Shown here: in pieces, positions 24,958 to 31,800 of the stretch
Layout of the letters: each line of letters begins with the position of its first letter
Numbering within the stretch: the first letter of the stretch is position 1
NCBI RefSeq assembly: GCF_000002075.1
Contig: NW_004797435.1
Span: forward strand, 1,158,852-1,222,851
Direction: 5' to 3'
Source: Aplysia californica
Lineage: Eukaryota
DNA length: 64,000 nucleotides
Made by a program: the position numbers and the translations under genes
The notes under the pieces: model-generated
What the model saw: the letters and a program-made list of their open reading frames with translations, nothing else
What the model was told of the DNA's origin: nothing
Databases searched by the model: none

Positions 24958-27900
24958 ACACATAACAGATACACACACATTTATACACATGATGAAGGTC
25001 CTCTGCTATGACACATTATATGTGTCATGACACAGTGGAATCAGGCATTTGTCAATTTTTGGTCGTATCAGTATCATCTTAAAACTTGTTTTTTTGTTTT
25101 TGCTTGCGATGAAAATATACTCATCCATCTTGAATGGAAGTCGAGATATTTGCAATTAAAGGAGGTGGGTATAATGTTGTTTGGTTTTTGGGTTCAAAAA
25201 GTTTTAAAAAGACTGAAGATGCACACTTGAAAAGGTTCTTACTTGTTTTGTTTTTTGTCCTCTATCACACAGCAATTGAAAGGTGACTACTGATCAAAAT
25301 TTAATAAAATACTGTTTAAATCACTGGTATAATAAGTATTGTGTGTAGTGGCGGGGCGTCATTGGTGCTATTGGTGCAAGCGCTCCGCCAAACCCTGGCC
25401 TTCACCCCCTCCCCCCACTTTTCTAAATTGTTCTAAACCAGTCAGTGCTCTAGATCTACATTACTACATCCCTGCGATCCGTCACCCGCTGGCTACGCCA
25501 GTGAAGAGACAGACAGCGAGGATGATTTATGCTTGTCGCACCGCTTGTGGTAGTGTCTGCTGGGAGCAAGCAAAATCTTTGCACCACAGTAATTTTGTCA
25601 ATGTAGAGAAATCTAGGCATCGTTCTTCCCACACAAGAAGAAAGGTGCATGAAACTGCTCTTCACATCACAAATTTGGTGCAAGCTAAAAATTTTGTCCC
25701 AGTTTCCACTAGCCTATCTACTACACTTACTAGAGTAGTAATAGAGTCTACGGTAACTCAGTGACGAATGAGTATCGGAACTGTTGTCTCCCTTTATTGT
25801 GTTGCAAGTCCTGGTGCTGCACGAAGTAATTAGAAATCTGTAAATCTTTCTCAGATTGTGAAAATAGTGAGTTGTTAGTATTGTTTCACTTTATCGCTGA
25901 TTTTATGCGGTTTCATCCAGAAACAGTTGTAAATATCGATAGATGTAGATTACGGGATATCCTGCAGATTCTAATTGACTTTCTCTAGAAATCTTAAAAG
26001 TAGCTACTAAGCCTATTGCCCATTTGCACACTTTCCAACTATGCACCACCTTGTCTGCAACCCACGCGACGCCACTGATTGTGTAATGTACATTATTTTA
26101 TTCTGGGAGGCACCAGGTGTTAGAAGTAAAATTAGTAAGAAAATGTCAGTCGGATCAAAGTTTGGTAATTTTGATCCAAAGCCTGAGTGTTGTTGGAAAC
26201 TGAAATTGACATTTTTTGTGCCTTTCATCAATGATTTTCAGTAAATCCATTAGAGAAATGTGATCTTAAATGGACTTAAAAGGTGTTAAATGAAAAACAG
26301 CAATTTGATAAAAATTGTCAAACGGGCAGAAAATGCAAGTTTCTTTGATTTCATGATTTTGTCAAGCGCCTGAGTTCACCACGATACCACACACATACAT
26401 GCATTAAGTTTCATGTATGATATGTTTTGGCTTGATAATATGTGGAGACATGATAATATTTGTCCTCAGGGAAGTGGAGGATCTAGAGATGTTCCTCTCA
26501 CTGAGGGTGTTGTGACAGATGTAAAGATTGAAGTTACTGCAGAAGATGGCACCACAAAGAATTATTTTGTGCACGTGAAAAGACTTTCTGCCAAAGATGC
26601 AGTCCTCACAAACCTCACCATCAAAAGTGGAAACTTGGAGCCAAATTTTGAACCAAATCAACTATTATATTACTGTGAGTTTTAAATTGTCTCAGTTAAC
26701 CAAATCTGATTCCAGCACATATTAGAATATAATGAAAGCTATGTAAGCCTATCGCTTTTATTTCAAATCATGTTACTGATGAGTAAATCCTTTCATAACA
26801 TTTTATATAAAGTATTAATTTCTTCTGAGAGATCTCATACATAATTTTGTTTGTACACTGGTTACCATAAGATATGGCTTAGAATCCATTCATATTCTTT
26901 CCATGCTTGATGCATGTGCACTGATACCTTTAACTGTCTTGGTAAGGTGAATTTCATTTTTTTTTTTATGTGATAGTTTCAAAGCTCTTTTACACCTGAA
27001 TTCCTATTTTAAAATGTTCTTATTCATACCATTAAAAACAGCAAACAGTACAAAAGCCTTTTTTAAGTTTAAGAAGTTCTATTTGTTTTCAGGTCTTTTA
27101 CCATGCAGCATAACTGTAGCAACAGTAACACCAACAACACCTGATCCCAAGATTACTGTGGTGGTTGGCGGGAATCCCCCGAAGACTCCTGTTCCTTTGA
27201 ACACTGGTCTGACTAATATTGACATTGATGTCACTTCTGCTGATGGGTCCAACAAAAAGGTTTTTAAATACATTTTTTTTTTTCAAGATATGCCTTTTGT
27301 TTCATTTTAATGTTTTGAAGTTTTGATCAAATACATTAAATTGGTATTTAAAATTGAGGATTTACTCCATATAAAAACTTTGTTAGACATAGTGATCAAG
27401 TCAATTCAAAGACAGGAGTGAAGAACTGCATGTTGTTTGTATTTTGATATCAAGTGAACAAGTATAAGAAGCCAGAATCTCAATATATATCATTTATTTT
27501 TCAAATACACAAGAAATGGAAAAGAAATATTGTAGATTGAGTATGATGTCATTTCAATTTCAACGTCATTTATTTTGGGCAGAATATGCAGTTCATCAGA
27601 ACAAGTTTTCATTTGAAAATAAAATGCTGGCACTTATATTCATCTGATGTCCATGGTTTGTGTATGTTCATGTTTTACTTTGTTCATGATAGTGCATGCT
27701 GGTATTCATAACAGGATAATTAGCATTTGTGTATCTTTTCAGACCTATTCTGTGGAAATTGTGAGAAAGCAAATTCCCAGATTTGTGAAGTTCACAGATC
27801 CCAAAGCAGCCGCAGAATATGAGTGCCCCATTTCCCTCAGCCCTTTGTACTGTCCAATTACAGTCAAAGGAAGCAAACCGAAGCACACTTATTCTGGTCC

Positions 27901-28893: not shown

Positions 28894-31800
28894 GCGCGCA
28901 CATTTGCATGCAAACACAAGAGATAGGGATGATGTCTGTTTCAAATTTCTGTCTTGGACTCTTTATCAATAGTCAAAGTACCTCCTGATTCTGTGGTATC
29001 CCAAGAAATAATTATATAAGTGGAAGCTGGAATAGCCTCTTAAAAGCAAAGCTGTATGCATGTCTACTTCCATCTTGCAGGTGCCACAGAAGCGATGAAG
29101 TTCGGAGAGCTTGCACAAAACTTGGCTCAATGTAATAAACCAGCTGAGCTCAAGGTGAGGTGTTATAAAAAAAAAATTTCAGGGATGGGGGTGATAATGA
29201 TAATGCCATAAAAATTAACTCTATTAGCACAGCAGTTTCTATAATCACTAGCATTTCTTTTACAAAAGTGGTAATTTTGGTTGGTTTAACTATTGAATAA
29301 TACATATTGTGTCATTTTTTTAAATTGAAAAAGCCTGATAATTCTCCAACAAATTCTCCATTTGTATTGTTTGTCTCAGATGGAAGAAAAGAGGCCCTCC
29401 AGTCATGCTCATCTTTATATGGAAATGGCTTAATTGTATTTTCTTCTATCTTGCAGGATCTTTCAGCAAAGTTCAAGAATTCATCACTCAGTCTGTCTCG
29501 TACATTACAGGTTTGTGAAATAAAAAAATGAATTACTCTTAATAAAGTTACAAACAAACAAATTTTTCTACTTACAGCTGTATTATAACAGTCTGCATAA
29601 ATTGTAAAATGTTTGTAATGAAAGGTTCATAATTTCCATTTCTGAGAAAGACAGAATAATATTCGAAAATGAAGATACATATACATGTATGACTAAAATA
29701 TCTTGGTCAATAACTTTTGTCACTATTTCTTTGAATATTCATAGTTCACTTCATTTTAAACTGACCTCATCAATCACTTAGTTTGTTTTAATGTGTTATT
29801 CATATTTGCAAAGATTGTATGCATCTTTCATATAATCTTCTGTCATGTGTTTTAAGCTAAAATGGAACAGTGAAACCCTCAAAATATTACTTGTCAACAC
29901 TGTGCACCAATCTGTTTTTGAGCGTTGATTATAAATTATCATGTCCTACTCAAGACACACCCTGATGACAACGTCCTAACTCTTTAAACCCACTCGGATG
30001 CTGGGAGCGTCCGGCAGTAATAACACTGTTCCCCATCGGACGCTGGGAACGTCCTATACTAGTGACAACTGTTTCATTTCATTTAGTGCTAGTTTTTGTT
30101 TGTTTTTCGGAACTATTTCCGAACCAAGTTTTTTTAGCAATGACTAATAGCCTTTGTTTCCGTCTTTTAGAAGTTGGAGGCAAGCTTTTGGGGTTATGAT
30201 GAGACATAGTGAACCAGGTTTAGGTGACTGTAGATAAAACTCTGGGAAACGGTGGAAAAAACTCAGGGTTTAAAGAGTCAATTGTGGTGTCACTGATATG
30301 CTTGAGATTATTGTGATATGGAGCTCACTAACCACTTTGCTACTGGGGCCCTTTGGTATGCTTCAGTGATTTATTTAATTCTTCCTTATCCTTCAAACTT
30401 CTTGCGTTTTGCTTATGTTGTCTAATGTCTTCGATGCACACTATGTGAATAGGAACAAAAGTGGGAGAAAGGCCTACAGCAAATCTTTGATGAGACAAAT
30501 CCAGATGCATTAGTCAAGGCTGCTGACACTCATCTGCTAGAGTATTACAAGAGAGTACCAAGACCTGGTGAGTTGTGCTGAAGTATATGTGNNNNNNNNN
30601 NNNNNNNNNNNNNNNNNNNNNNNNNNNNNNNNNNNNNNNNNNNNNNNNNNNNNNNNNNNNNNNNNNNNNNNNNNNNNNNNNNNNNNNNNNNNNNNNNNNN
30701 NNNNNNNNNNNNNNNNNNNNNNNNNNNNNNNNNNNNTATGTGTGCATTTTGTGTGTGATTGTGTGTTTGTGTGTGTGTATCACTCCTTGTTTCCACATGA
30801 TACTCTTTAGCATCTTTGACATGATTGTTTGCAAAAAATGGATGAGCTAAAGCTTTAATATCTTTAGAAATTTATCAAGTTGAAATTGAAAAATTCCTTG
30901 CCAACAATTTCTGCAAAATGCAGCTCATGGCAAAAAAGGATGGGTTGCAAAAGCTGCAAAATGCGGCTTGCACTAGAGAATGAGTTTAAAGTTATTTGCC
31001 TTCACGAAAGAACAAAATTAATGTATGTGGTTGAAGTGTTATAGACATTTTAGTGTTTTTATCAAGGAAAGTTGTTGCTGAAATGTTGATGCCACAATAT
31101 TATTTTCATCAATATTTTTGGTAACACTTTTATGTAAATTATCAGTTTCTCATTCACAAGGGTGAAAGGTTTTGTAAAGGAAAGTGTAGCCTTCGTGAAA
31201 AATTTATGCCACATCTATGACAAACCATTCTTTACATTCATTATGTTTCAGGCCAATTTCACTTGCAATACTCTGAAGGGGATTCCCCTATAGACTCCCT
31301 CCAGAATGCCATCTACTGTGTCGCTACTGCCATCAAGTTCAAGCCTAAGGATGCTGCTCTTCATCTCAAACTGGCCATGACACTTGAGGAGAAATACTAT
31401 GCAGAGGACATGTTTGCTTTGAAGAAGGAGGTTAGCCCCTTGCTGTATGTTAACTCAGTAGACAATTCCCTTGATTGTTTTTGAGGGATTTGCCAGAGCA
31501 CCTACAGGACTACTTAAATTATAATGGTGTCAGTACTTTAAACAAGTAACAGTCACTGTTTTATTTTTTGTTTTTTATGAGTTTAATATGCAGTCCGACC
31601 TAAATAGACAGGTCCTTTCAAAGGCTGAGCTCTAGACCCTATGACTGCGATAAAGAAGAAGGGAGGAAAGCAACTGGAAATGATGCCGGGAAGTAAATAT
31701 TGTATACATGTGCACTTGAAAGTATAGATATCTACCCATTAGTGTTATTCTTTCCCTGGTATGCTATGGCACTTTTTTTTTATATCTCCCCATGCATTAA

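Follow-up and report, generated by a model that had tools for sequence, protein, structure and literature searches.

U-boxes are regarded as RING fingers in which zinc has been traded for hydrogen-bond networks. Canonical U-box families were zinc-free already in early eukaryotes, so the path from RING to U-box cannot be watched within them. Members of the TRAF family have an N-terminal RING followed by TRAF-type zinc finger(s), and a C-terminal coiled coil and MATH/TRAF-C domain. Loss of zinc chelation on a RING or treble-clef fold is a known and recurring event, as described in PMC13061254, PMC4999995 and PMC13290226. In the present study, a plus-strand gene of the snail Aplysia californica was analysed within a stretch of 64,000 nucleotides (contig NW_004797435.1, positions 1,158,852–1,222,851; hereafter the window), which encodes a TRAF6-like module of a RING and a first zinc finger (ZF1) with most zinc ligands replaced. 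We consider, with a probability of about 0.6, that this module, encoded by exons 4 and 5, descends from a zinc-binding ancestor within its own family and has lost its ligands, and that the protein probably remains a ubiquitin ligase (E3) of the RING type with a fold predicted to be metal-free.

The RING-ZF1 segment is part of a gene of approximately 20 exons, which runs from an ATG at 22668 to a stop at 45313 (Table 1). Exons 1–14, which have AG/GT ends, combine into one open reading frame of 798 codons, and five further exons supply the C-terminus; for the exon that starts at 39054, the donor can be placed only approximately, near 39200–39300. The peptide on which a previous sequence-only reading was based is present on the plus strand of the window, but it is interrupted by a GT..AG intron (28041–29080) between exons 4 and 5. 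Over this gene, assembled public contigs span only exons. The splices 26674>27093 and 27259>27743 are visible in one of four runs, and contig loose ends coincide with the start of the exon at 29081 and the 3' end of exon 1 in two of four; neither of these two runs is recorded as RNA. Two raw-read RNA runs yielded 0 reads, hence neither for nor against splicing. Exon 4 has one match in the A. californica genome, as a single-copy gastropod gene. The protein is arranged as two cadherin-like beta-sandwiches, the RING-ZF1 module and tetratricopeptide repeat (TPR) arrays. It is apparently cytosolic, as no signal peptide was seen by eye; in the family, the tandem cadherin-like sandwiches match bacterial surface proteins with ~32% identity across both domains.

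Only two of the eight RING ligands are kept in the snail protein (C206 and H226), the rest being S209, S222 or P224, S229, S232, D243 and S246, so that the eight-ligand cross-brace of a canonical zinc RING (C3HC4 or C3HC3D) is absent. Within ZF1, one ligand of four remains (C295), and the others are I272, A279 and N291. The ligand substitutions named in the sequence-only reading were correct.

Orthologues were gathered by word-index searches and one exhaustive profile search of representatives; cadherin-like repeat proteins dominated the profile matches, and 11 new family members were found among the matches listed (the best 150 of 27,267 at E ≤ 0.001). The orthologues come from molluscs, nemerteans, annelids, a flatworm, amphioxus, fishes, a hemichordate, a crinoid, a coral, a glass sponge, a ctenophore cluster and the choanoflagellate Hartaetosiga, and every one is named 'uncharacterized' or 'hypothetical'. 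The ctenophore-cluster orthologue (P0122) clusters with a Bolinopsis protein, and a second sponge-type sequence (P0058) is sister to Oopsacas in the tree. A 73-member Atlas cluster has the same make-up as the family (0.92). All counts below use 43 sequences, namely the snail and 42 others; P0063 and P0121, which lack the region, the partial sequences P0047, P0002 and P0026, and near-duplicates within clusters were left out. Pfam scans of five full-length orthologues revealed two cadherin-like beta-sandwiches and TPRs, with no RING, U-box or MATH match. Orthology between the snail and ctenophore-cluster proteins extends over the full length (30% identity across 837 columns at E 2e-84, with the C-terminal block in addition), and the top match of the coral segment in the A. 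californica genome is exon 4 (E 1.5e-15). A tree constructed without the RING/ZF columns roughly follows the animal tree and places the snail protein among euthyneuran snails, where it groups at a support of 100 beside Elysia, Plakobranchus and the pulmonates. Conservation of the RING part among spiralians is 0.70 vs 0.71 and 0.64 for the TPR body. Literature searches by locus identifiers and domain phrase, in which subscription journals were mostly not covered, returned no study of this gene family, which supplementary lists could name, and no RING-to-U-box series within one orthogroup.

Orthologues that retain Cys/His ligands exist, as the alignment check proposed in the sequence-only reading had foreseen. 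RING site 1 (ligands 1, 2, 5 and 6) is complete in 6 of the 43 sequences: the ctenophore cluster, the choanoflagellate, two sponge-type sequences, the coral and Saccoglossus. Site 2 is complete in two, the ctenophore cluster (C3HC4) and the choanoflagellate (C3HC3D), where it is only inferred because the register of ligand 3 is unusual. With Pfam zf-C3HC4, the ctenophore-cluster RING segment scores 26.1 bits, above the cut-off of 21. ZF1 is complete in nine sequences (ctenophore cluster, choanoflagellate, coral, crinoid, amphioxus and four fishes). Sponge, coral and hemichordate keep site 1 alone of the RING sites, crinoid and chordates have lost both RING sites and kept ZF1, and none of the 31 spiralian sequences, the snail included, has a complete zinc site, with Asp at ligand 1 in five of them. 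The half-site intermediates (coral, hemichordate and sponges) already have the mollusc-type loop 2 and W254. A second finger (CxxC..H..C) could be recognised by pattern in six sequences and by eye in the choanoflagellate; it is absent in five chordates and deleted in spiralians, and the linker encoded within snail exons 6–14 lacks it.

From this distribution, site 2 appears to have been lost first, before the coral/bilaterian split, and site 1 later and more than once on the accepted animal tree, on which two or three losses or one regain are needed since Saccoglossus keeps site 1 and crinoid, chordates and spiralians do not. Parsimony on the gene tree gives three changes of site 1. The losses form a mosaic, in which Saccoglossus has RING site 1 without ZF1 and its relative, the crinoid, has ZF1 without site 1. 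The two related sponge-type sequences share the site-2 loss, the replacement loop and W254 with coral and bilaterians, and the single ctenophore-cluster sequence and the choanoflagellate keep site 2; taken as a single character, the site-2 loss with the replacement loop and W254 groups sponges with cnidarians and bilaterians.

The fold was predicted with AlphaFold2 for the Lymnaea segment, which is 76% identical to the snail exon, using a 40-row family alignment (predicted local distance difference test, pLDDT, 89). The predicted model shows the loop, beta-hairpin, helix and loop of a RING (Z 11–12). Foldseek placed TRAF6 chains at ranks 1–6 (E 6.9e-5, 104–118 columns, template modelling score ~0.7), followed by LNX2, TRAF5, LNX1, RAG1 and RNF125, and the first U-box at rank 27. 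VIA-align gave TRAF6 a Z of 11.9 (root-mean-square deviation, rmsd, 2.4; 102 aligned) and U-boxes a Z of at most 10.3 (68–78 aligned). A 15-row whole-family profile matched TRAF6 (E 5.4e-11), RNF125 (2e-9), LNX2 (4e-9) and a plant U-box (0.007). Ranking of TRAF RING-ZF against U-box templates, as suggested earlier, therefore put the TRAF6 RING-ZF1 first in both profile and fold searches, with a match that extends into the ZF1 region, and weak Pfam matches to zf-TRAF/Sina_ZnF were found in the crinoid, amphioxus and coral segments. The order of a RING followed by a TRAF-type zinc finger is thus present as fold and ancestry, with the ligands lost in the snail protein. There is no C-terminal coiled coil and MATH domain; the five orthologues have no MATH, the snail gene ends in a TPR-like block, and the snail protein is for this reason not a TRAF. 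The proposal that a zinc-independent RING fold was derived from a TRAF-type module rather than from canonical U-boxes is supported by orthologues, profile and fold as far as the module is concerned, with zinc independence as a prediction. Descent from TRAF6 itself is not indicated, since RNF125, LNX1/2 and TRAF5 possess the same module and have scores just below that of TRAF6.

Hydrophobic residues at the positions of loops 1 and 2 and of the helix that are expected to dock the ubiquitin-conjugating enzyme (E2) are present in the snail protein (I208, L210, L236, P244 and L245). Column counts revealed E205 in 37 of 43 sequences, a hydrophobic residue at I208 in all 43, L210 in 41, a hydrophobic residue at position 236 in 38 and P244 in 40. 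According to 10.1101/2023.06.19.545655 and PMC6874479, the equivalent residues I72, L74 and E69 of TRAF6 contact the E2 Ubc13, and PMC13290226 describes an Ile of loop 1, an aromatic residue of the helix and a Pro of loop 2 as E2-binding or essential in U-boxes. A complex prediction of the snail exon with an A. californica E2 exon, lacking the first E2 residues, scored 0.00, with the partner fold uncertain and the alignment not used, and gives weight to neither view.

Resemblance to U-boxes could also have arisen had a canonical U-box been swapped into the spiralian gene in place of the RING. Atlas features placed U-box clusters first (0.82, a lead only), weak Pfam U-box matches occur in 6 of 18 spiralian segments (best E 0.008), and the residues at ligands 1, 2, 7 and 8 are U-box-like: six A. 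californica U-box genes, read by eye, have C/D at ligand 1, M/T/S at 2, D/S at 7 and N/T/S at 8, and the family has S (31) or T (6) at ligand 2, D (38) at 7 and S/N/T (34) at 8. However, the coral and the hemichordate have four site-1 Cys along with a loop 2 of the mollusc type, a halfway state not expected from a swap, and ligand 5, which is acidic in all six genome U-boxes and belongs to the first hydrogen-bond network, is S in 36, C in 6 and T in 1 of the family, and acidic in none. PF04564 gave no match to the snail exon at E ≤ 5, the exon is not among the 14 Pfam U-box matches of the genome, Lymnaea reached 13.5 bits against a cut-off of 21.4, and the fold match runs through ZF1. The half-site intermediates and the ligand-5 difference point to parallel substitution instead of a domain swap, and a swap, already largely refuted by these intermediates, is very improbable. 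The best reading is that a RING fold without zinc ligands, as seen in sequence and prediction, arose within this family and probably moved toward U-box residues at ligands 1, 2, 7 and 8, and not at 5. A SUMO ligase domain of the SP-RING type is suggested by the only Pfam match of exon 4, zf-Nse (E 0.0027, 17.9 bits vs a cut-off of 27), which is also weak in 12 of 18 spiralian segments. Yet SP-RINGs, according to PMC13061254, lack ligands 2, 5 and 6 and keep the other site (ligands 3, 4, 7 and 8), and in this family site 2 was lost first, leaving P224/S222, H226, D243 and S246 in the snail; as no SP-RING chain appeared among the Foldseek, VIA-align and family-profile matches listed, we give this identity hardly any weight. 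A single metal could instead be bound through a rearranged set (C206, C215, H226 and C295, or acidic residues), given that amino acids (aa) 203–322 of the snail protein hold three Cys and one His. However, Arg stands in place of C215 in 12 of 23 sequences, and of the 31 spiralians 11 have another residue at H226, 5 have Asp at C206 and 7 have another residue at C295, so that no four-ligand set is conserved and such a site is highly unlikely.

The strongest competitor to an active ligase is a pseudo-ligase of the same origin, in which the module would persist as a spacer separating the beta-sandwiches from the TPR body, with a structural, dimerising or ubiquitin-binding role, and would have ceased to activate an E2. 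Several results weigh against our reading, and some of them favour this one. The basic linchpin that commonly, though not universally, follows ligand 8 is G247 in the snail, and the position holds no Arg or Lys in any of the 43 sequences (G 24, E 11, D 4, S 3, N 1; acidic in 15). The position of TRAF6 D57 appears to fall on F192, which is not acidic, judging from the start of the alignment range only; P244 is replaced by Leu in three sequences, and position 236 by Lys in three oysters. Linchpin identity varies among active E3s, yet its change can cut or abolish activity (PMC12326332). Precedents are the TRAF2 and BARD1 RINGs as pseudo-E3s (PMC13061254) and IFT172, a TPR protein whose U-box-like domain binds ubiquitin and has weak or no E3 activity (PMC13290226), and repeated ligand loss fits relaxed demands on catalytic geometry. 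As to the fold, RING1B ties with TRAF6 when the RING core only is compared (Z 12.0, rmsd 1.5, 74 aligned). An 18-row spiralian profile still puts TRAF6 first, colinear over 100 positions, but with a weak E of 0.49; a model from the same 18 rows drops to pLDDT 57, with the RING core below 50 in places, and finds TRAF6 first at E 0.4. The confident model consequently depends on ligand-bearing rows. The spiralian profile finds the ctenophore segment alone with a probability of 0.3%, vs 99% with the coral row added, a link via intermediates, and none of six PDB matches of exon 4 alone at E ≤ 10 is a RING or U-box protein. Since these spiralian-only controls are weak, the case for TRAF6 likeness rests on orthology and intermediates instead of the snail sequence alone. 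Finally, a gene tree with just one loss of site 1, in which the 12 site-1-less rows form one clade vs 4, is not rejected (approximately unbiased test, p-AU 0.158), and the view of several losses accordingly relies on the accepted species tree. Against a pseudo-ligase, E205, I208, L210, position 236 and P244 are conserved while the adjoining ligands change. The absent linchpin is an ancestral state and not decay, because ligand-complete orthologues lack a basic residue as well, and G or N occupies that position in three of six U-box genes of the same genome. On balance, the conservation pattern suggests that an active E3 is likely, by roughly 2 to 1, and that a pseudo-ligase is a serious but unlikely alternative.

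If the module is an active ligase, Ser/Thr at ligands 2 and 5, Asp at 7 and Ser/Thr/Asn at 8 may replace zinc as in U-boxes, and the family-specific T237, K241, W254 and D258 may also stand in for it. E205/I208/L210, L236 and P244 would dock E2~ubiquitin. Without a basic linchpin, activation could come from a partner protomer, the ZF1-like lobe or an E2 of high basal activity, and the TPR arrays, perhaps with the two beta-sandwiches, could hold a client, as the architecture suggests. A more far-reaching version can be offered tentatively, with odds somewhat below even: an active, wholly zinc-free RING-ZF1 ligase would have arisen within animals from an ancestor with four zinc sites, independently of all canonical U-boxes, with site 1 lost separately in spiralians, chordates and the crinoid, each time with a shift to residues like those of U-boxes (at ligand 2 Ser/Thr, and in five spiralians Asp at ligand 1).

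Table 1. Features of the snail gene in the window (positions are those of the window)
Feature	Position	Strand	Evidence
Exon 1, first half of cadherin-like beta-sandwich 1	22668..22829	+	Open frame; PF12733 E 1.6e-6; contig loose end before 26470
Exon 2, last part of cadherin-like domain 1 and beginning of domain 2	26470..26674	+	PF12733 E 6e-7; splice to 27093
Exon 3, cadherin-like domain 2	27093..27259	+	PF12733 E 6e-6; splices observed
Exon 4 (aa 179–278), degenerate RING (aa ~203–262) and start of ZF1-like region	27743..28040	+	Open frame, contigs, model, profile, single genome match
Former RING ligand positions C206, S209, S222/P224, H226, S229, S232, D243, S246	27824..27946	+	Column counts n=43; TRAF6 alignment
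E2-facing E205, I208, L210, L236, P244; G247 next, at linchpin position	in or adjoining 27824..27946	+	Column counts n=43; TRAF6 alignment
Exon 5, remainder of ZF1-like region (A279, N291, C295)	29081..29154	+	Contig loose end; colinear with orthologues
Exons 6–14, linker then TPR/helical body	29457..38407 (29457-29510, 30453-30567, 31252-31430, 32786-33010, 33619-33827, 35068-35208, 36079-36216, 37304-37529, 38206-38407)	+	One open frame, AG/GT ends; TPR matches weak, below cut-off; colinear with orthologues
Low-complexity Ala/Arg/Gly/Pro linker exons	39054-?, 42105-42157, 42928-42991	+	Sequence
Exon opening C-terminal TPRs	43440-43612 (block 39054..43612)	+	Sequence
Last two exons, conserved C-terminal TPR-like domain and stop	44203-44419, 45174-45313 (block 44203..45313)	+	Same end as orthologues

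Elsewhere in the window, a head-to-head neighbour on the minus strand (21717–21986) starts ~680 bases upstream of the ATG, with more minus-strand exons near 17285–17339 and 10763–11060; Pfam gave no match for two of its exons. At ~363–452 (minus strand) lies the first exon of a small GTPase with a G1-box-like motif, presumably Rab32/38-like, whose 30 residues had no Pfam match. Non-LTR (long terminal repeat) retrotransposon copies occur on the plus strand at 55276–58534, with endonuclease, reverse transcriptase and RNase H matches in two frames, and at ~49100–50600, where the copy is interrupted by stops. Short inverted pairs seen by eye (22886–23060 / 23930–24140 and 19480–19800 / 21060–21220) are possibly small transposon remnants. 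A 244-codon exon at ~52940–53671 (plus strand) has a hydrophobic stretch and then a Ser-rich tail, without a Pfam match above cut-off, and probably closes the gene of a membrane protein as its last exon.

Compared with the TRAF6 RING-ZF1 (PDB 3HCT/3HCU/5VNZ), the family module is colinear over ~100 residues through RING, linker helix and first zinc finger, and positions like E69, I72, L74, the loop-2 Pro and D120 are matched; the C3HC3D pattern of the choanoflagellate orthologue is the one listed for TRAF6 in PMC3166285. Unlike the RING-ZnF modules of TRAF6, TRAF5, LNX1/2, RNF125 and SIAH1, the snail protein has no complete zinc site and no MATH or coiled coil, and its module, with 17–20% identity to TRAF6-type modules, is flanked by cadherin-like sandwiches and TPRs. 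With canonical U-box E3s (CHIP, UBE4/Ufd2, Prp19 and plant PUBs) it shares a RING fold without ligands and the replacements at 1 (C/D), 2 (S/T), 7 (D) and 8 (S/T/N), and the architecture recalls CHIP, in which TPRs accompany a zinc-free RING. It differs from them in lacking an acidic ligand 5, in falling below the Pfam cut-off, in its ZF1-like lobe and in being traceable to zinc-binding orthologues. Other degenerate RINGs (SP-RING, RMND5/RTF2, IFT172 with its U-box-like domain, and the RING-like domains of tau60 and alpha-COP) have likewise lost zinc partly or totally on a RING or treble-clef fold; here, by contrast, a single orthologous family displays states that are full, half or empty, with lineage-specific, mosaic degradation of two flanking zinc fingers as well. 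The family adds an unannotated candidate E3, extending from a choanoflagellate to fishes and molluscs, whose RING is missed by Pfam scans of full-length proteins. Living orthologues carry 8, 4 or 0–2 RING ligands and are otherwise colinear, so that a few purified domains would allow direct tests of the order in which steps were taken, of the residues that compensate and of the price paid in E2 activation, and if the ligase is zinc-free and active, these orthologues would replay the RING-to-U-box transition stepwise. Degenerate RINGs are a known class; what is new is an unstudied family with full, half and empty zinc sites among living orthologues.

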